Part shown: positions 17,791 through 55,765 of the stretch, piece after piece
How positions within the stretch are numbered: position 1 is the first letter of the stretch
Layout of the letters: every line of letters begins with the position of its first letter
Source: Kiritimatiellia bacterium
GTDB taxonomy: Bacteria; Verrucomicrobiota; Kiritimatiellia; RFP12; UBA1067
NCBI GenBank assembly: GCA_017447805.1
Contig: JAFSMR010000001.1
Coordinates: 36,371 to 100,370, forward strand
Length of the DNA: 64,000 bases
Reading direction: 5' to 3'
The notes under the pieces: model-generated
The model's input: only the letters and a program-made list of their open reading frames with translations
The model's database searches: none
Told to the model about the DNA's origin: nothing
Position numbers and translations under genes: made by a program

Positions 17791-19005
17791 TTATCCGATT
17801 GAAGAAGAAACCTGGAACACTGCCATCAAGATAGAAACGGCGACAAATCCCACGGCGCCGGCGATGAGAACAATCAAGATTGGTTCAAGCGCATTTGTAA
17901 ACGCGGTGATATTGCGGTCCATATCTTTTTGATATCGCTTGCCGATATGTTCGAGCGAGCCTGCCATATCGCCAGCTTGCTCGCCGACCGAAAGCATATC
18001 GGTCATCATACGAGGGAATACGCCGCTCGAAGCAAGAGGACCGGAAATCGAAGTTCCATCTGTTACGCGCTGGCGAGCGGTCTTCAAAGCCGAGCCGATT
18101 ACGGCGTTGCCGCATGTTTCCTCGGCGATTTTCAGCGCCTGCAAAACATTGACGCCGTTCGTAAGAAGCGTCTTCAAAGTATAGGCCAGGGTAGAATACG
18201 CGCCAGTAGCAACGATGCCGGAAATCAGCGGCGCTTTAAGCTTCCATCCGTCGATTTTAAGTCTGCCCTTCTCGGTCTTGCTCCATCTCCTAAACCACCA
18301 AACGAAAAGTCCCAAGCCGATTGCCATAAGCCAGCCGTAATTTATAAGCCCGTCGCTCATTGCGATCAGCATACGCGTCGGCAAAGGCAAGGTGGCGTTC
18401 ATCGATTCAAAGACTTTCTGGAATTTCGGGATAATCCAGACAAGCGCGGCGATGACGGCGAACACGCCGAACACAAGAACGATAATCGGGTAGCTGAGCG
18501 CGCTCTTGATCTTACCTCTCATATTATCATAGCGCTCGTAGTGATCGCCAAGGCGACGCAATACTTCGACCATCGCGCCGGAAGCTTCAGCCGCGCGAAT
18601 CATATTCCCATAGAGAGGTTCGAAAGTCTTTGGATGATGGAAGCAAGCGTCGGAAAACGTTTCGCCGCGAACAATCCTATCGCACAGGTCTTGGCAGACG
18701 TATTTTTGTCCGCTCAATTCTTCGCCTTGATTTGCCAGCGCCTGCAAAGCTTGACCAAGCGTCATGCCCGCCTCGATGAGGTCTGCAAGTTCCGAAGTAA
18801 AGAGAAGGACTTCGAGGCGCGTCATGAAAGTTTTTGCTTTCGCGCCGCCGATCTGCATATTCCAGATCGATTCCTTCTTTTCTTTCTTACCGGAACTTTG
18901 CTTCGTGCGGGAAGTCGCCTCGCCAGAAGCCGAAGGCGCATCTGCTCGCGCGCCGGCAGTCTTGGCGCGCGATATCGAAGCAGAACTCTTTTTGGCGTAG
19001 CCCAT
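17791..19005 (-). CDS. type II secretion system F family protein (GspF/PilC-like platform protein)
   Basis: 404 aa with duplicated T2SSF domains and three TM segments. Confidence 0.8.
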   Translation of the reverse strand: MGYAKKSSASISRAKTAGARADAPSASGEATSRTKQSSGKKEKKESIWNMQIGGAKAKTFMTRLEVLLFTSELADLIEAGMTLGQALQALANQGEELSGQKYVCQDLCDRIVRGETFSDACFHHPKTFEPLYGNMIRAAEASGAMVEVLRRLGDHYERYDNMRGKIKSALSYPIIVLVFGVFAVIAALVWIIPKFQKVFESMNATLPLPTRMLIAMSDGLINYGWLMAIGLGLFVWWFRRWSKTEKGRLKIDGWKLKAPLISGIVATGAYSTLAYTLKTLLTNGVNVLQALKIAEETCGNAVIGSALKTARQRVTDGTSISGPLASSGVFPRMMTDMLSVGEQAGDMAGSLEHIGKRYQKDMDRNITAFTNALEPILIVLIAGAVGFVAVSILMAVFQVSSSIG

Positions 19006-19028
19006 GCGCTTTTCTATTATCCTTTATC

Positions 19029-20294
19029 TTAATTTGCCTTCAACAGGAAATTGTTTTTCTTGCCTTGCTTGAGAACGGCGATGCGCCCTTCGATGAGATC
19101 GCCTTCTTCGAAAACGCGATTCGCATCGATCTTGTCGCCGTTCAGCGCAAGCCCGCCTTGCTGCGCCATGCGGCGCGCTTCGCCATTCGATTTGAACATG
19201 CCAGCGCTCGCCGCTACGGCGAACACCGCCTTGCCTAAGATATCGCTCTTCGCCAGAGTTGCGGCTTTTACATCCTTAAAGATTTCCTCGAGCTGGGCGG
19301 CGGATTGTTCCTTGATATTCGCTGCGCCAAAGAGGGTCTTTGTTGCGCCGAGCGCCGTCTTCAAACCTTCCTCGCCGTGCACGAGAAGAGTAAGTTCCTC
19401 TGCGAGCGCCTTTTGCGGAATCCTCTCTTCCGGATGCGCCTTCATCGCTTCTTCGAGAGAAGCGATTTCATCGAGCGATTTCATCGAAAACACTTTCAGA
19501 TAACGAATGACATCGGCATCGGCCGCGCGCAAGAAATATTGATACCAATCATATACGCTCGTCATTTCGGCATTGAGGAAAAGCGCATTGCCTTCGGACT
19601 TCCCGAATTTCTTGCCGGTGGAATCGAGCAAGAGCGGGAATGTCAGCCCCCAAGCCGTCTCGCCGCGCATTCTATGAATCAGGTCCGTTCCGGCGGTGAT
19701 ATTGCCCCACTGGTCGGCGCCGCCGATTTCCATCCGGCAGCCATAATTATCCCAGAGATGCAAGAAGTCGTTGCCTTGCAAAATCTGATAGGAAAATTCT
19801 GTAAATGTAAGCGCGCCTTCGCTTGCTTCCAGCCTCTTCTTCACTGATTCCTTCGCGAGCATCTGCGGCACGCGGAAATTTATCGCGATATCGCGCAAAA
19901 ATTCGATAGCGCTCGTTCCCTTGTACCAATCATAGTTATCGACCATGATTGCCGGGTTGGTGCCGTCGAAATCGAGGATGCGCGATAAGTTTTCGCGAAT
20001 TCCTTCTTTATTCGCCGCGACTTGCTCGACCGTAAGCATGTTGCGCTCCTGGCTCTTGCCGGAAGGGTCGCCGATTAGACCCGTAGCGCCGCCGACGAGC
20101 GCTATAATTTTATGCCCCGCCTGCTGAAAGCGCTTGAGAACAATCATCGAAACAAGGTTGCCAGCCTGCAAGCTGCGTGCGCTTGGATCGAATCCGCAAT
20201 AAACCGTAGTCGGCTTCTCGAGAGCTTTTTCGATTTCAGGGTCGCTTAGCGCCTCGACGAGGCCGCGCGCTTTTAATTCTTCTATAAGTTTCAT
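19029..20294 (-). CDS. tyrS: tyrosine--tRNA ligase
   Basis: HIGH-region GFDPSARSLQAGN, KMSKS-like KFGKSEGN, C-terminal S4 domain. Confidence 0.9.
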   Translation of the reverse strand: MKLIEELKARGLVEALSDPEIEKALEKPTTVYCGFDPSARSLQAGNLVSMIVLKRFQQAGHKIIALVGGATGLIGDPSGKSQERNMLTVEQVAANKEGIRENLSRILDFDGTNPAIMVDNYDWYKGTSAIEFLRDIAINFRVPQMLAKESVKKRLEASEGALTFTEFSYQILQGNDFLHLWDNYGCRMEIGGADQWGNITAGTDLIHRMRGETAWGLTFPLLLDSTGKKFGKSEGNALFLNAEMTSVYDWYQYFLRAADADVIRYLKVFSMKSLDEIASLEEAMKAHPEERIPQKALAEELTLLVHGEEGLKTALGATKTLFGAANIKEQSAAQLEEIFKDVKAATLAKSDILGKAVFAVAASAGMFKSNGEARRMAQQGGLALNGDKIDANRVFEEGDLIEGRIAVLKQGKKNNFLLKAN

Positions 20295-37351: not shown

Positions 37352-37427
37352 GCGAGCTTAACTCAGTTGGTAGAGTGCCACCTTGCCAAGGTGGTTGTCG
37401 AGGGTTCGAGTCCCTTAGCTCGCTCCA
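37352..37427 (+). tRNA. tRNA-Gly (GCC)
   Basis: Cloverleaf folds: acceptor GCGAGCT/AGCTCGC; anticodon stem CCACC/GGTGG with loop TTGCCAA; T-loop GGTTCGAGTCC; encoded CCA. Confidence 0.9.
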
Positions 37428-37446
37428 ATCTCCGAAGCAGTGAAAT

Positions 37447-37523
37447 GGGGGCGTAGCTCAGCTGGCTAGAGCAAGTGACTCTTAATCACTGGGTCCAGGG
37501 TTCGAATCCCTGCGCCCCTACCA
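37447..37523 (+). tRNA. tRNA-Lys (CTT)
   Basis: Acceptor GGGGGCG/CGCCCCT; anticodon stem AGTGA/TCACT with loop CTCTTAA; T-loop GGTTCGAATCC; encoded CCA. Confidence 0.9.
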
Positions 37524-37531
37524 TTTAAACC

Positions 37532-37607
<76 letters not shown>

Positions 37608-37619
37608 AATCCAATCAAA

Positions 37620-37649
37620 CTCGGAGAGAACTCCGAGATTTTTTGTTTT
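37620..37649 (+). terminator. intrinsic terminator of the tRNA operon
   Basis: ctcggag-agaa-ctccgag followed by attttttgtttt. Confidence 0.8.
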
Positions 37650-37927
37650 ATGGATTTGCGCGTAAAGCCCAATTGTCGGGCTTGTTTTGATTTCTCCCAG
37701 TTCTCTTTCGTGTGTGCCACAGAATGCGTACCACGGCCTTTCTGGGGCTTTTCATCCCGCGAAGTATCTCCGCCGCGTGACTTTAGTCAACACGACGGTT
37801 TCAAGGGAAAACGCCCAATTCTTCCATTTTCTATGGAAACCACCTATCTGGTGTGCGCGTATCTTGTCATAGGCAGTTTGAGCCCAAAAGAGAACTCTGC
37901 GCCGCCAGAGTGTGCAAATGCACACAT

Positions 37928-37958
37928 TGCAAAATAGGCATGGCCGTAAGACCATGCC
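37928..37958 (-). terminator. intrinsic terminator at the end of the recombinase operon
   Basis: GGCATGG-ccgtaaga-CCATGCC. The minus-strand transcript continues with UAUUUUG. Confidence 0.5.
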
Positions 37959-37985
37959 TTGAGATGCTATGATTGTAGAATGAGG

Positions 37986-38420
37986 CTATGCCAGTCCAAT
38001 CTCCCGCTCCTGTTCGCTCCACAGGTCGCTCTTGATGTTGAAGAGCCTCTCCGTTGAGAAATCGTCGGGCAGCGTCTTGGCTATGACCGCCCGGAGGATC
38101 TTCGGCGAGAGGTTGGCGAGGCGCAGAACCCGAACCACATAGGGTCGATCCATCTTCAGCCCCTCTGCAAGCTCCTTCACGTCTCCAAACGCTCCGGTTT
38201 CAAGGAGTCGCGTCCACTCTCTGGCACGGGCGAAGAGCCGTATGAGCGTTCCTGATTCGTCTAGGTCGATGTCATTTACCTCTCCTTGTCCCGCAACAAC
38301 GAGTCGGCGGCGTCCGCAGACCGTCTGGAACCGGATTGGAATCGATACGAGAACATTCCCGTCCTCAGTTTCCATGATATTCATGCTTGAATTCCTCCAT
38401 GAGGCGTTTGTCGCCATCAA
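37986..38420 (-). CDS. hypothetical protein with ParB-like HTH segment
   Basis: 144 aa. DVKELAEGLKMDRPYVVRVLRLANLSPKILRAVI matches the spacing of the ParB/Noc HTH (ELAExLGxSRSxVxNxLRLLxLPxxV). Overlaps the recombinase 3' end by 56 nt in another frame. Confidence 0.4.
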   Translation of the reverse strand: MMATNASWRNSSMNIMETEDGNVLVSIPIRFQTVCGRRRLVVAGQGEVNDIDLDESGTLIRLFARAREWTRLLETGAFGDVKELAEGLKMDRPYVVRVLRLANLSPKILRAVIAKTLPDDFSTERLFNIKSDLWSEQEREIGLA

Positions 38421-39657
38421 TCTTGAACTTGATGTCGACGGATGATTCGTAGATTGTCACAGACTCGATAATCCTCGCCAGAAGATCGCGCTTGGCGACC
38501 GGTTCGAGGGATGTCCAGAACGTTTCCGGCGATTCGAGCTGCCGCCGCATCTCGAACGGCGAAATGCATCTTTCGGTCGCAAGCGCACGGAGCATCGTCG
38601 GCGTCTTCAGGAACTTGATCGCCTCCGCCTCCACAAGCGGTTCGATCAGCTGGGCGGGAACGGATTTCACCGTGCAGGTCGAGACGCCGCGCCTCATGTC
38701 CTTACGGCAGGAATAATAGCCGTAGCGGGTTCCGTTGCGGCTCTTGCCAGTCCAGGTGTATGAGAGCGCGTTGCCGCAGTGGCCGCAGCGGACGAGCCCC
38801 GTCAGGAGCGCCGGAGAGGAGATGCACCGCTCCGCCCTTGGCTTGACCTCGACGGCCTTAAGCCGCTCTGCTACCTTGTTCCACAGCTCCATGCTGACGA
38901 TAGGTTCGTGGACGCCCTTGAAGGATTCGCTCTTCAGCGGGACGCGTCCGATATACACGCAGTTGCGAAGCGCGGTTGCGACCATGACGGTGTCGAAAGG
39001 CTTGTCCCTCTCTGGGAAGCGCAGGATACCGTTTTCTGTTAGTCGCTTTGCGACGAGCTTTGGCGTTCCGAGTTCAAGATACCACTCGAATATCTTGATG
39101 ACATTGGGAGCTGTTTCGGGGTCGACCACCAGCCGCTTGTCGATGCGTTTGTAGCCGTATGGAACCGTACCGCCCGGCCAGAACCCCTTACGCCTTGTCG
39201 CGGCCATCTTGTCGTATGTGCGCTCGGAGGCAAGTTCCCGCTCGAACTGGGCAAAGGTCATGAGGAGGTTCATGCACATCCGCCCCATCGAGGTCGAGGT
39301 GTTCAGCTCCTGCGTTACGCACGAGAACGACACGTGGTGTTTCTCCAGCTCGTTGAAGACCTGGGTGAAGTCGAGGAGCGAACGCGAAAGACGGTCGATC
39401 TTGTAGCAGACAATCATGTCGATTTTGTCCGCTCTTACATCCTCCATCAGCCGCTGAAACGCCGGTCGCTTCAGATTGCCGCCGGAGTACCCTCCGTCAT
39501 CGTAATGGGTTTCAAGACAAACCCAACCCTCAAGGCGCTTCGCCGCGATGTACGACTCGCAGGCCATGCGCTGCGCGTCGAGGGTGTTGAACTCCTGTTC
39601 GAGGCCTTCTTCAACGCTCTTTCTCGTGTAGATTGCGCATCGAATCACTTGTTGCAT
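38365..39657 (-). CDS. large serine recombinase (resolvase-domain integrase)
   Basis: 430 aa. N-terminal catalytic domain with the nucleophile serine in AIYTRKS, followed by DRLSRS. Recombinase domain and C-terminal zinc ribbon (CGHCGNALSY...YYSCRK). Confidence 0.9.
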   Translation of the reverse strand: MQQVIRCAIYTRKSVEEGLEQEFNTLDAQRMACESYIAAKRLEGWVCLETHYDDGGYSGGNLKRPAFQRLMEDVRADKIDMIVCYKIDRLSRSLLDFTQVFNELEKHHVSFSCVTQELNTSTSMGRMCMNLLMTFAQFERELASERTYDKMAATRRKGFWPGGTVPYGYKRIDKRLVVDPETAPNVIKIFEWYLELGTPKLVAKRLTENGILRFPERDKPFDTVMVATALRNCVYIGRVPLKSESFKGVHEPIVSMELWNKVAERLKAVEVKPRAERCISSPALLTGLVRCGHCGNALSYTWTGKSRNGTRYGYYSCRKDMRRGVSTCTVKSVPAQLIEPLVEAEAIKFLKTPTMLRALATERCISPFEMRRQLESPETFWTSLEPVAKRDLLARIIESVTIYESSVDIKFKIDGDKRLMEEFKHEYHGN

Positions 39658-52010: not shown

Positions 52011-52287
52011 TGGAGCGAAAAAGCCGACCGCTCGGGCAACCGAAAGAGGCCGATGACGAGGCCCCGAAAACCGCCCGAACGGTCGACGGCGGACATTGTG
52101 CCATAACCCGCACGACAAGTCAACCGCCCGAATCGGGAAATAACGGCTCGGGTCGGGCGGGGTGGGACGTAACGTCCCTGCGAGGCTACGGTTCCTCCCT
52201 GCCCCCTCTCAAAGGCAGGGCGCGGGAAGGAGCGCAACTCCAGGACAGACTTTCTTTCCCGACGACGTAATTTTCAAGGAGGTAAAA

Positions 52288-54516
52288 ATGCAAGGAAAAC
52301 AAGATGAAATGACCTATGCAACCGTGTGTTCGGGAATCGAGTGCATGAGCGCAGCGGTAGCGCCGCTCGGCGGCTGGAAGCCGGTGTTCTTCAGTGAGAT
52401 CGAGCCGTTCCCGTGTTCGCTACTGAAGCACCGGTACCCGACGGTTCCAAACCTTGGGGACATGACGAAAATCACAGCCGAGAAGATCGGCGAAGAGAAA
52501 TGGAGGATCACAAATGGAACAGATGTCATTGAACTTGCCGGGCGTCTCGGCTGTCTCGCCGGCGGCACGCCGTGCCAGGACGTGTCGGTCGCGGGGAAGC
52601 GCGCGGGCATGGCCGAAGGGAGCGGAACCCGCTCCAGCCTTGCCTTCCACTTTGCAAGGCTTTGTCGAGAGCTACAACCCAGATGGGTGCTTTGGGAGAA
52701 CGTTCCGGGAGTTCTCACCTCAAACGGAGGACGCGACTTCGCGCACTTCGTCAAGTCGATTGGGGAATGCGGGTATTCTCTTGCCTACAGGACTTTGGAC
52801 GCTCAATGGGTGCGAGTGGACGGGCTGCCCCGCGCAGTTCCACAGAGACGCCGGCGTGTGTGGCTTGTCGGACATCTTGGAGACAGTTGGCGAACACCTG
52901 CGGAAGTACTGTTTGAGCCTCAAGGCGTGCGCGGGGATACTCCGCCGTGCCGCATCGCGGGGCAAGGATTTACCAGCGAGACTGGCGGCGGCGCTGAAGG
53001 CGCAGATCGCCCGGTTCCAACGAACTCAAACGGCGGCGACGTGATGCCCGCCCTCACCGCGCGGGACTTGGAGGCGCGGATGACCGGGCAGGCTGATCGC
53101 TCGGGCGGATACGTCATGCAGCCGTCGGGCTTCGACCCCTACGAGCCTGGCGGCGTCAAGTCGGACAGTCCAGAAGTCTCGGGCGCTCTCGTCAATGGCT
53201 CTTCGCCGGGTTTCCACAACGCGGTGTGCTTTGAGAACCACCAGACGGATGCAAGGACGACGGAGGTTGATGTCGCCCCGACTATGGGTGCAACGCACAA
53301 CGCGCAGGCGGCGAACAACAACCCGCTTGTCGTTGTGCCGACCGACGTGTTCGGCAAGGTCGCGCACGCCATGAACAAGAACGGCGACGGCGAGAAATAC
53401 GCGAAGATCGAGGTCGCCGAGACGAGAAACACATTCTCGAATTCGGAGGCGCGGACACAGGAAGTTGTCGTGCAGCCCAAGGACGGCGTAGTAGCCATCG
53501 ACATGGACAAGAACAAGCCGACGAACGCCGACAAGCCTGTCCGCAAGGGCGGCGCTGGATTTGGCGTCTCGGAGAAAGGCGCGTCCTACACGCTCACGGC
53601 GAGAGACCAGCACGCGGTCGCATACGCCATCGACTCTATGGGGTCCAACGCGATGAAGTCGAAGAACCCGAAGAGCGGATGTCGGGAGGTTGAGTGTGCG
53701 CCGACTCTGACGACGGTCGATTCCGCGCCGGTCAAGCACCAGGGCGGCACAGCGGTCGTGGCGTTCCTTCCGGGCAACTCCAAGAAGGCTCGTTCCATCG
53801 CCGCCGACGAGGAGGTTTCGCCTACGCTCATGCGGACGCAGGGCGAGAGCGGCAACAAGGTCGCTGTAGCGACGGAGTGCGTCGGCGTGTTCGACATGGA
53901 GGCAGGGAAGTCGAGCGGTCGGGCGGACACGTCCGGCGTTTCGCCCACGATCCTCGCGTTGCACGGCACAGACCCGCACGCGGTGTGCATCGGCTTCAAC
54001 GCGGAACCGGGAACGCACGTCCAGACCCCGCACGACAACCTTGGCGACACCCTCGCTGTGAGCCACAAGTGCGGCGTCGCAATCGGCCTCGACCGCGCCT
54101 CGTTCAACCAGGGGAAGAACGCGAAGTTCGGCTTCTCGGTCGAAGAGGAATGTGCGCCCACGGTCGTGTCCAAGGGACCTGGCGCGGTCTCGTTCGAGCC
54201 GGGGATCGCCAAGCGCGAGGGAGCGTCGCACCGCTTCTCGGACGAGGTGACGTCGACGCTGCGCTCCGACATGGGCGACAACCTCCCGGCGGTCGCCGTG
54301 GACTACATCGTCCGCCGCCTGACCCCGCTCGAGTGCGAAAGGCTCCAGGGGCTGCCGGACGGATACACGCTGATTCCGCATCGCGGGAAGCCTGCGGAGG
54401 AGTGTCCCGACACGCCAAGGTACAAGGCGCTGGGCAACGGCTGGGCGGTCAACTGCGCCCGCTGGATATGCCAGCGAATCCAGAAACACGAACAGGAGAA
54501 CACACATGGAAACTAA
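52288..54516 (+). CDS. DNA (cytosine-5)-methyltransferase with an exceptionally long (about 470 aa) reiterated variable region; candidate multispecific MTase
   Basis: Motif I CSGIE, motif IV GGTPCQDVSVAG, motif VI ENVPG, motif VIII QRRRRVWLVG, C-terminal motifs IX/X (RRLTPLECERLQGLPDGYT, GNGWAVN). Start at the ATG after AAGGAGG. Confidence 0.85.
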   Translation: MQGKQDEMTYATVCSGIECMSAAVAPLGGWKPVFFSEIEPFPCSLLKHRYPTVPNLGDMTKITAEKIGEEKWRITNGTDVIELAGRLGCLAGGTPCQDVSVAGKRAGMAEGSGTRSSLAFHFARLCRELQPRWVLWENVPGVLTSNGGRDFAHFVKSIGECGYSLAYRTLDAQWVRVDGLPRAVPQRRRRVWLVGHLGDSWRTPAEVLFEPQGVRGDTPPCRIAGQGFTSETGGGAEGADRPVPTNSNGGDVMPALTARDLEARMTGQADRSGGYVMQPSGFDPYEPGGVKSDSPEVSGALVNGSSPGFHNAVCFENHQTDARTTEVDVAPTMGATHNAQAANNNPLVVVPTDVFGKVAHAMNKNGDGEKYAKIEVAETRNTFSNSEARTQEVVVQPKDGVVAIDMDKNKPTNADKPVRKGGAGFGVSEKGASYTLTARDQHAVAYAIDSMGSNAMKSKNPKSGCREVECAPTLTTVDSAPVKHQGGTAVVAFLPGNSKKARSIAADEEVSPTLMRTQGESGNKVAVATECVGVFDMEAGKSSGRADTSGVSPTILALHGTDPHAVCIGFNAEPGTHVQTPHDNLGDTLAVSHKCGVAIGLDRASFNQGKNAKFGFSVEEECAPTVVSKGPGAVSFEPGIAKREGASHRFSDEVTSTLRSDMGDNLPAVAVDYIVRRLTPLECERLQGLPDGYTLIPHRGKPAEECPDTPRYKALGNGWAVNCARWICQRIQKHEQENTHGN

Positions 54517-55765
54517 CAGGATGAAGGTCGTGAACGTCCCCGTCTCGGAGATCATTCCCTACGAGAACAACCCGCGTATCAACGAGGGCGCGGTCGAGCA
54601 GCTGGCGAACATAATCGCCACCCTCGGCTTCAGGAATCCCGCCGTCCTCAACAAGGACAAGGTCATCATCGAGGGTCACACGCGCCTTCTCGCCGTGAAG
54701 AAGCTCGGCTGGGAGACGATGCCCTGCATCATCGCCACCGACCTGACGCCGGAGCAGGAACAGGCCTTGCGCATCGCCGACAACAAGATTGCTGAAATCG
54801 CGGAGTGGGACGAGGACAAGCTCAAGGTCGAACTCGCCGCGTTGCAGGAGGCGGGGTTCGACCTTTCGCTTCTCGCCTTTGGCGACGACGAGCTGGACGA
54901 CCTTTTGGGCGGCGAGGCGGGGACGCACGGCGAGACGGAGCCTGACGCGGTTCCCGAGACGCCGGAGATTCCCGTCTCGACCCCTGGCGAAGTCTACCAG
55001 CTCGGAAAGCACCTCCTCGTCTGCGGAGACTCGACGAAGCCCAACGACGTCGACAAGGTGTGCAAGGCGGACGAGGCGAACCTCTGGCTCACGGACCCGC
55101 CGTACAACGTGGACTACCACGGCTCGGACGGACAGTCGATCCAGAACGACTCGATGGAGGACACGAAGTTCCGCGAGTTCCTTCGCGCGGCGTTCGGCTG
55201 CGCGGAGAAGCGCCTCAAGCCGGGCGGCTCGTTCTACATCTTCCACGCGGATTCCGAGGGCTACAACTTCCGGGGAGCGTGCTTTGACGTGGGGCTTAGC
55301 GTGAGGCAATGCCTCGTCTGGAAGAAGAATTCGCTCGTCCTCGGACGGCAGGACTACAAGTGGATTCACGAACCCTGCCTCTACGGTTGGCGCGAGGGGG
55401 CGGCGCACGACTGGTACTCCGACTGTTCGCAGACGACAGTTATGGAGTTCAACAAGCCGAAGAAGAACGACCTCCACCCGACGATGAAGCCCGTCGAGAT
55501 GCTGTGCTACCTGATCGGCAATTCGTCGAAGCGCGGCGACATCGTCCTCGACACGTTCTGCGGTAGTGGCTCGACGCTCATCGCCTGCGAGAGGACGGGT
55601 CGCGTGTGTAGGGCCGTCGAACTCGACCCGAAATACTGCGACGTAATCCGCAAGAGGTGGGCGGAGTTCGTGCATGGGGAGGGATGCGATTGGCAATCGC
55701 TGACTCCCGTCGTCGGCACATCACCGGCGCCAGAAGCGGAGGATGCACACGATGAAGGTGCTTGA
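54506..55765 (+). CDS. ParB/Srx-like nuclease domain fused to N6-adenine/N4-cytosine DNA methyltransferase
   Basis: N-terminal ParB-like region (IIEGHTRLLAVKKLGW). MTase motif IV DPPY (LWLTDPPYNVDYHG). C-terminal FxGxG-type AdoMet motif DTFCGSGST. Confidence 0.8.
   Translation: METNRMKVVNVPVSEIIPYENNPRINEGAVEQLANIIATLGFRNPAVLNKDKVIIEGHTRLLAVKKLGWETMPCIIATDLTPEQEQALRIADNKIAEIAEWDEDKLKVELAALQEAGFDLSLLAFGDDELDDLLGGEAGTHGETEPDAVPETPEIPVSTPGEVYQLGKHLLVCGDSTKPNDVDKVCKADEANLWLTDPPYNVDYHGSDGQSIQNDSMEDTKFREFLRAAFGCAEKRLKPGGSFYIFHADSEGYNFRGACFDVGLSVRQCLVWKKNSLVLGRQDYKWIHEPCLYGWREGAAHDWYSDCSQTTVMEFNKPKKNDLHPTMKPVEMLCYLIGNSSKRGDIVLDTFCGSGSTLIACERTGRVCRAVELDPKYCDVIRKRWAEFVHGEGCDWQSLTPVVGTSPAPEAEDAHDEGA

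Follow-up and report, generated by a model that had tools for sequence, protein, structure and literature searches.

A putative multispecific C5-cytosine methyltransferase of a temperate phage combines one catalytic core with an array of short target-recognition modules

The stretch of DNA analysed here (64,000 nt of contig JAFSMR010000001.1, assigned to a Kiritimatiellia bacterium; hereafter the window) comes from a metagenome scaffold of 128.6 kb (ENA ERZ28654336, scaffold_170). It carries, within a prophage, a gene for a C5-cytosine DNA methyltransferase (C5-MTase) whose catalytic parts are separated by a much enlarged variable region. We read this protein as a multispecific C5-MTase of a temperate phage, in which one catalytic core is served by an array of 7-11 short target-recognition modules, and consider this interpretation fairly probable. 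The architecture with multiple target-recognition domains (TRDs) is well supported, and multispecificity of the enzyme is plausible. We infer that the modules function as TRDs with distinct specificities and that the enzyme has an anti-restriction role. The further proposition, that the majority of the 7-11 modules work as independent TRDs and that a single phage enzyme would methylate seven or more unrelated motifs, is tentative and may well prove too generous; to our knowledge, such a number would exceed that of any characterised C5-MTase.

As judged by family membership, the open reading frame (ORF) at 52288-54516 is a genuine C5-MTase gene, and methyl transfer is predicted for its 742-aa product. 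The protein matches PF00145 at 121.1 bits (cut-off 22) in two stretches flanking the variable region and phrog_116 ("DNA methyltransferase") at 1.2e-80. An identical gene is called on three public contigs. A longer ORF with a GTG start at 52162 was rejected; the ATG at 52288 was preferred because a perfect Shine-Dalgarno site, AAGGAGG, is located 5 nt upstream of it, the homologues begin at the equivalent residue, and the three public gene calls agree with this start. A motif scan found the methyltransferase (MTase) motifs in canonical order: CSGIE (motif I) at residue 14, TPCQ (IV) at 94-97 with the catalytic Cys96, ENV (VI) at 137, QRRRR (VIII) at 186, RRLTPLE (IX) at 676 and GNG (X) at 716, while motifs II (FFSEIE) and III (GDMTKI) were read from the translation. 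The original prediction, which had been made from the letters of the window alone, had all ten C5-MTase motifs present; those just listed occur in order, whereas V and VII were not individually located. The motif I variant, with Glu replacing the second Gly, is invariant in this MTase family. Alignment with M.HhaI is limited to residues 89-195 and 672-730 (74-170 and 268-317 in M.HhaI). An AlphaFold run with a shallow alignment (62 sequences, 79-98% identity) gave the whole protein a mean predicted local distance difference test score (pLDDT) of 37.7. In a second run with a diverse alignment (77 sequences, 40-98% identity) the catalytic core reached about 85-95 and residues 680-730 reached 79-91. 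A Foldseek search with the modelled core, which does not cover the modules, had M.HhaI (3.5e-13) and M.HaeIII (9.3e-12) as top matches and confirmed the core fold.

Motifs VIII and IX are 490 residues apart, whereas alignments place them about 111 residues apart in M.HhaI and about 190 in the SPbeta methylase MtbP (M.SPbetaI; sequence taken from AF020713). The nearest relatives, of which 108 representatives could be parsed, have a median distance of 284 and a range of 130-653. An enlarged TRD region of about 470 residues, delimited by QRRRRV at about nt 52843 and motif IX near nt 54300, had been proposed, and the two motifs are indeed found at 52843 and 54313. All six reiterated motifs listed at that time are present (APTMGA at residue 330, CAPTLTT at 470, SPTLMRT at 511, SPTILAL at 552, CAPTVVS at 622 and TSTLRS at 655), and further cores of the same Thr-Leu (TL) type were found in addition: MPALTARD at 253, SYTLTARD at 433 and GDTLAVS at 586. 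The reiteration of (A/S)-P-T-(L/I/V/M) is not due to chance. In the 480-residue variable region [AS]PT[LIVM] occurs five times against 0.07 expected and [CV][AST][PS]T[LIVM] six times against 0.03 expected, and none of 20,000 shuffles of the region reaches these counts (0/20,000 in both cases). The bare T[LIVM] dipeptide is not enriched (9 against 6.3 expected).

With the core Thr residues as reference points, the variable region divides into 11 consecutive modules of 32-70 aa, M0-M10 (Table 1). The common plan is a hydrophobic strand (AV.F or VAIG), a loop and a TL-type core (E/D)-x-(A/S)-P-T-(L/I/V/M). Accordingly, modules open with a hydrophobic segment (AVCFEN, AVAYAI, AVVAFL, VAVATE, AVCIGF, VAIGLD or AVSFEP) and end shortly after the core. 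Clear cores are present in 8 of the 11 modules, M2 and M4-M10. A hidden Markov model (HMM) of the core was built from the eight cores of the query and iterated on its relatives, with no Bacillus sequence included (consensus GGVAEEEVSPTLTARHGGG). Seven query cores score 8.9-14.9 bits with this model, and shuffled proteins contain no match of 4 bits or more, while inspection gives 9-11 modules. The original estimate of five to six cores therefore captured the reiteration but was too low, seven being found by the HMM and 11 modules in the layout. Relative to motif IX, M10 occupies the TL-loop position of monospecific enzymes.

The cores carry the signature of known TRDs. A "TL motif" consensus published for the C-terminal part of C5-MTase TRDs, (YFW)X(RK)X5P(STCA)PT(ILV)(TASV)X5-16H(PFYWL), is located 10-50 aa before motif IX, and the residues flanking it contact DNA (PMC2413257). 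The query cores match its centre, (STCA)PT(ILV); a downstream His lies within or near the published spacing in M4 and M5 and is also found nearby in M2, M7 and M8. Applied to MtbP, the core HMM scores YSPEGLSPTLTTMGGG of the variable region at 12.8 bits, and 0 of 2,000 MtbP shuffles reach 4 bits. It misses a second TL-like core of MtbP, EPAFTVNT, and so undercounts. The likening of the reiterated motifs to the Thr-Leu cores of TRDs is thus upheld by the published signature and by the MtbP core; no confident fold was obtained for the array.

The array is conserved as a functional protein would be. The ratio of nonsynonymous to synonymous substitution rates (dN/dS) was estimated by the Nei-Gojobori method from five homologous genes (L006, L007, L008, L010 and L013; 68-88% identity) and equals 0.16 for the whole array, 0.19 for the N-terminal core and 0.13 for the C-terminal core. 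Purifying selection on the array is as strong as on the catalytic core. The lowest values, in ascending order, belong to M5, M2, M4, M1 and M9. Column entropy within the family is 0.33 for the array compared with 0.26 for the core, with M4 and M5 (0.08) falling below the catalytic core, and the TL cores of several internal modules are invariant across 62 sequences. M8 is a hot spot of variability, in which the variable positions flank the TL core. Given dN/dS and column entropy, the array is a functional protein and not a drifting linker. The variable region has a Shannon entropy of 4.01 bits, with at least 2.8 bits in every 20-aa window. Together with the shuffle statistics and the array dN/dS, this entropy excludes a low-complexity artefact, which had been named as a possible refutation; a disordered or low-complexity linker model was rejected on the entropy, the lack of low-entropy windows and the same dN/dS.

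Natural variation indicates that the modules act as independent cassettes which are gained, lost and reordered. Database searches yield over 7,900 relatives of the MTase, most of them sampled from ruminant or other guts. The best 120 of these show 72-98% identity and are 669-816 aa long, bar one form that carries an intein and reaches 1150 aa. The close homologues belong to metagenome-assembled genomes (MAGs) from the rumen and other ruminant-gut sources, which are labelled Kiritimatiellae, Oscillospiraceae or "uncultured bacterium RUG...", and the length differences among them correspond to whole modules. Among the 120 aligned close-family sequences M3 is present in 30, a common 690-aa form lacking it, and M6, M8 and M9 are lacking in 7-8 each. 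Longer homologues possess extra cassettes of 31-34 aa with cores of their own, SGTLAAR, SETLAVA and VAATLAS (cassette sequences ending ...PEVSGTLAARHKCG, ...ISETLAVAHQCG and ...EVAATLASNDF), and 31-aa paralogous cassettes are inserted beside M8. A survey of module order in 150 representatives of 50%-identity clusters (module match at independent E < 1e-3) revealed relatives of about 50% identity with reordered modules, M0-M6-M5-M3-M2 in P0138 and M5-M0-M2 in P0140, and further orders such as M9-M6 and M10-M5. M2 is present in 14 relatives at other positions, and the first part of M0 is common to 65 of the 150 representatives. From 344 related proteins 124 distinct 30-aa cores with less than 60% mutual identity were collected. 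HMM-detectable cores are most numerous in the query family (seven), other representative clusters having at most 5-6.

In many relatives catalytic motif IV is the exact insertion site of an intein of about 330 aa; the window copy (site 52570-52575) does not have it. Inteins are present in P0082, P0126, P0153, P0222 and at loci L011 and L012, with Hint and LAGLIDADG domains precomputed for P0082 and P0132. The junctions in P0082, P0126, P0153 and P0222 (marked by a slash) read GGTP/CF.AGT... and then N/CQ (...HN/CQ in three of them), so the +1 extein residue is the catalytic Cys of the PCQ motif. P0132, P0152 and P0243 have the same N-terminal junction. A homologue with 81% identity (L014; RUG11483, CACXPT010000083.1, 3001-5078) has a stop after residue 230, which may reflect a pseudogene or an assembly error.

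These features, and analogy with the multispecific MTases of Bacillus phages, suggest the following model. At any DNA site, one module would bind in the major groove next to the flipped-out cytosine, as the single TL recognition loop does in M.HhaI or M.HaeIII, and different modules would read different short sequences, giving one enzyme with many methylated motifs. On prophage replication, this enzyme would be co-expressed with an overlapping ParB-N6/N4 MTase, two more C5-type MTases and an S-adenosylmethionine (SAM) synthetase supplying the cofactor. Since one enzyme and its companion MTases would methylate many motifs, we propose that progeny DNA would already be shielded from many of the hosts' Type II restriction systems. 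Whole modules would be gained, lost, duplicated and shuffled as the repertoire evolves.

Several observations weigh against an array of functional TRDs. Residues 212-675 have no confident fold in either AlphaFold run (pLDDT 20-40), and because they stayed below 40, no structural likeness of the modules to solved TRDs could be demonstrated. Such low values are compatible with a flexible beads-on-a-string arrangement which would become ordered only on DNA, and equally compatible with an alignment scrambled by module shuffling. Furthermore, outside the core of about seven residues the modules are alike only weakly. BLASTP self-comparison of the variable region returns the diagonal alone and no internal repeats, the Smith-Waterman shuffle z exceeds 3 in 5 of 55 module pairs (the best being M5-M9 with 7.5 and M6-M10 with 5.4), and the mean hhalign score of module pairs is 10.7 against 7.8 ± 1.8 for reversed decoys. 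Scores above 15 are reached by 6 of the 55 real pairs and 0 of 110 decoys; M5-M9 scores 22.4, M5 being the closest internal match of M9. The internal repeat comparison envisaged in the original prediction thus yields a signal which is weak but real, centred on M2 and M5-M9, and visible to Smith-Waterman and hhalign but not to BLASTP. As the modules are so weakly alike elsewhere, the repeat is defined mainly by its core motif and periodic layout; divergence of this kind is expected of TRDs with different specificities.

Comparison with known TRDs is similarly one-sided. Single modules have no significant match to the MtbP variable region (BLASTP, E 2.5-3.8), and neither the variable region nor a profile of 124 module sequences matched a solved MTase in PDB sequence searches; no PDB or Pfam match covers the region. 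The proposed alignment of sub-segments to known TRDs has in this way produced no PDB MTase match, but M5 (E 2.5) and M7 (E 3.8) do align weakly and in register with the MtbP segment around SPTLTT. Finally, the cores of M0 (MPALTARD), M1 (VSGALVNG) and M3 (VAETRNTF) are degenerate and undetected by the core HMM, and some modules could be inactive pseudo-TRDs, which have been described for Bacillus-phage MTases. Artificial sequences consisting of the core, one module and the C-terminus scored 124.9-128.4 bits on Pfam, 1-3 bits apart, in a comparison run without controls; the Pfam model is too poor in TRD information to separate the modules.

Part of this evidence would suit an enzyme with one or few specificities, in which only M10 and perhaps one or two other modules are active, while the rest are pseudo-TRDs or scaffold kept to space the catalytic halves or to aid non-specific DNA binding. 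M10 lies exactly at the TL-loop position of M.HhaI relative to motif IX, the cores of M0, M1 and M3 are degenerate, the array lacks an AlphaFold fold, and pseudo-domains occur in the Bacillus-phage enzymes. However, M4 and M5 are more conserved than the core (column entropy 0.12 and 0.08 against 0.26; dN/dS 0.07 and 0.02), their TL cores do not vary across the 62 sequences, and modules move between relatives as units and in new orders, as expected of functional cassettes and not of scaffold. We therefore regard this explanation as rather unlikely. It is still less probable that the modules jointly wrap or slide on DNA and confer relaxed or near-non-specific activity in very short contexts (GC, CG, CC), in which case the enzyme would be the C5 analogue of the adenine methylases without specificity that phages and plasmids encode, such as M.EcoGII. 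Very relaxed MTases are indeed used by phages and plasmids against restriction (PMC12707154), the array is long and treated by AlphaFold as flexible, and the neighbouring SAM synthetase suggests a heavy cofactor demand. Yet gain, loss and shuffling of modules and the M8 hot spot fit discrete specificities better, and the same element encodes a second full-length C5-MTase as well as the 215-aa C5-MTase-like protein, both of which would be redundant beside an enzyme that methylated nearly all cytosines.

One could also suppose that the insert of about 470 aa serves as a disordered linker or forms a domain of different function, such as protein contacts or capsid packaging, and that the motif is incidental. 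The pLDDT below 40 across residues 212-675 in both runs and the lack of a PDB or Pfam match for the region agree with this, but the motif is about 70-fold over chance and identical with the TRD signature, the region is selected as strongly as the core, sequence complexity is normal, and the insert sits exactly at the TRD position between motifs VIII and IX. Besides, a catalytic core without any TRD could not bind its target, and we give this explanation very little credence.

The multispecific design that we favour has its precedent in temperate phages of Bacillus. Their MTases (M.SPRI, M.Phi3TI, MtbP, M.H2I and M.Rho11sI) likewise have one C5 core, an enlarged region between motifs VIII and IX and several contiguous short TL-cored TRDs, and the MtbP core GLSPTLTTMGGG is recognised by the query-family HMM (12.8 bits). 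MtbP has two TRDs, the best-studied members of the group have up to three active specificities, and the SPR MTase is said to have "triple sequence specificity". These enzymes are presumed to protect phage DNA from several restriction systems (PMC12707154). The query differs from them in having 7-11 modules, 490 aa between motifs VIII and IX (about 190 aa in MtbP) and a variant motif I. Its family comes from ruminant or gut MAGs with Kiritimatiellae or Oscillospiraceae labels, not from Bacillus, and it is known here from sequence alone. BLASTP identity to MtbP is 23% and restricted to the catalytic core (2e-14; motifs IX-X 5e-05); given this confinement and the E-values of 2.5-3.8 at the level of TRDs, we do not place the query in the Bacillus-phage lineage but consider it a separate one.

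In M.BssHII and M.phiBssHII, too, one C5-MTase has been reported with several targets (five are attributed to M.BssHII), as we propose for the query, and the TRDs of the phiBssHII enzyme reportedly lie at separate locations. However, these enzymes are of ordinary size with few TRDs, and no array of 7-11 modules has been described for them. M.HhaI and M.HaeIII share the catalytic fold and the motif order with the query, and M10 is in the position of their single TL loop. They have one TRD of about 100 aa, whereas the query has ten modules before M10, and PDB sequence searches found no match of the query modules to their TRDs. The same architecture, at 27-29% identity, is encountered in Ca. Heliusvirales gut phages, in a 768-aa "hypothetical protein" of an Oscillospirales phage (XPP58087.1, locus L001, 5932-8238 of PV036458.1). 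Since this protein carries a 485-aa stretch with eight cores of the type (E/D)xxx(S/P/A/Q)TL between QRRKR and RRLTPTE, the multi-module design also exists in a distant gut-phage lineage, which differs in phage order and hosts and has modules not alignable one-to-one with those of the query. The presence of a C5-MTase in Heliusvirales phages has been noted, and SAM synthetase is common in them (PMC11283538). Full-text literature searches, which did not extend to the primary papers of the Trautner laboratory, found no C5-MTase described with more than a few TRDs. Compared without REBASE, the multi-module family is a much-expanded, abundant and apparently undescribed version of the multispecific design.

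Multispecific C5-MTases are a classic idea which has been little revisited, how one core uses alternative TRDs is a standing question, and we know of no solved structure of such an enzyme. A natural enzyme with about ten modules offers a test system, complete with natural variants which lack M3, M6, M8 or M9 or have one or two extra cassettes. If the modules are active, temperate phages of gut and rumen could cross many restriction barriers with one gene, and the reading of 5-methylcytosine motifs in metagenomic methylome binning would be affected, because one gene would yield many motifs. The family, with its thousands of variants (365-980 aa) and the Heliusvirales array, would then constitute a natural combinatorial library of DNA-reading cassettes of about 35 aa, evolving through shuffling that keeps pace with the restriction systems of gut bacteria, and would imply a new mechanism in which one catalytic core selects among about ten recognition modules. 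For engineering, active modules would provide a catalogue of compact portable DNA-recognition cassettes. For annotation, it is relevant that some multi-module MTases are labelled "hypothetical protein" in deposited phage genomes.

Table 1. Features of the multi-module MTase gene, its modules and the neighbouring phage genes (positions in the window; aa, residues of the 742-aa protein; HMM, core HMM score).
Feature	Position	Strand	Details
tRNA-Gly/Lys/Phe cluster	37352-37607		three genes; tRNA prediction; adjoins serine recombinase
Large serine recombinase	38365-39657	-	Resolvase, Recombinase and Zn_ribbon_recom domains
Shine-Dalgarno AAGGAGG	52276-52282	+	spacer 5 nt to ATG at 52288; read from sequence
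C5-cytosine DNA MTase gene	52288-54516	+	742 aa plus stop; PF00145, phrog_116, public gene calls
N-terminal catalytic part, aa 1-204	52288-52899	+	motifs I, II, III, IV, VI, VIII
M0, aa 205-274	52900-53109	+	conserved segment after motif VIII, then degenerate core MPALTARD; dN/dS 0.45, highest of modules
M1, aa 275-311	53110-53220	+	degenerate core VSGALVNG; no HMM detection; dN/dS 0.08
M2, aa 312-346	53221-53325	+	core VDVAPTMGATH; HMM 13.0 bits; dN/dS 0.05
M3, aa 347-392	53326-53463	+	atypical core VAETRNTFSN; optional cassette, 30/120 close-family sequences
M4, aa 393-442	53464-53613	+	core GASYTLTARDQH; HMM 12.9 bits; dN/dS 0.07; column entropy 0.12
M5, aa 443-488	53614-53751	+	core ECAPTLTTVD; HMM 14.9 bits; dN/dS 0.02; most conserved module
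M6, aa 489-524	53752-53859	+	core EEVSPTLMRT; HMM 10.0 bits; dN/dS 0.29; absent in 7/120
M7, aa 525-564	53860-53979	+	core SGVSPTILALHG; HMM 9.9 bits
M8, aa 565-596	53980-54075	+	core LGDTLAVSHKCG; column entropy 0.81; dN/dS 0.37; duplicated, replaced or absent in homologues
M9, aa 597-632	54076-54183	+	core EECAPTVVSK; HMM 8.9 bits; dN/dS 0.09; absent in 7/120
M10, aa 633-667	54184-54288	+	core DEVTSTLRSDMGDN; HMM 10.4 bits; 19 residues before motif IX
C-terminal catalytic part, aa 668-742	54289-54513	+	motif IX RRLTPLECERLQG, motif X LGNGWAVN
ParB-N domain fused to N6/N4 DNA MTase	54506-55765	+	PF01555 6.4e-26; weak ParB_N match; phrog_498 6.9e-163
C5-MTase-like protein, 215 aa	55743-56390	+	PF00145, N-terminal half alone, 4.5e-05; phrog_757 5.5e-40
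SAM synthetase, 341 aa	56664-57689	+	PF00438, PF02773; gene call in L003
Second C5-MTase, ordinary size, 363 aa	60822-61913	+	PF00145 4.8e-35; phrog_116 3.4e-67; between terminase and portal

The left end of the prophage is probably represented by 37352-39657, where the tRNA cluster adjoins the serine recombinase, which is the probable integrase and is followed by a DUF2924 protein. From about 45.2 kb the gene order is DUF3799 nuclease, AAA_24 ATPase, DUF669 protein, helicase, Prim-Pol/AAA_25 primase and the multi-module MTase, followed by the ParB-N6/N4 MTase, whose gene overlaps the stop of the latter by 11 nt, the 215-aa C5-MTase-like protein, the SAM synthetase, a HARE-HTH protein (minus strand), the large terminase subunit TerL, the 363-aa C5-MTase and the portal protein. 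Four MTase genes and the SAM synthetase gene are thus located within 10 kb, and by its gene content the element is a temperate phage equipped with several predicted MTases and a cofactor source of its own.

GC content lies at about 0.47-0.53 over roughly the first 38 kb, then rises unevenly and stays at 0.61-0.63 from about 46 kb; the mismatch between the phage part (about 62% from about 46 kb) and the flanking chromosome (about 51%) is unusually large for a resident prophage. CTAG occurs 5 times in the prophage (38300-64000) against 28 expected, compared with 77 against 67 in the host flank, and GGCC, CCGG and GATC are mildly depleted in the prophage relative to the host flank (observed/expected counts of 4-bp palindromes). 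Since the region is short and the result ambiguous, these counts give no MTase targets. By eye, the 215-aa C5-MTase-like protein has FSGTG as motif I, while PDC replaces PC and ENP replaces ENV; neither a TRD nor motif IX can be recognised in it. It could represent a mini methyltransferase or a relative without activity. In the annotation of an identical contig (L003), the public gene caller placed a 175-aa ORF in another frame (18713-19240) at the site of the 363-aa MTase, and the latter is therefore probably missing from that annotation.

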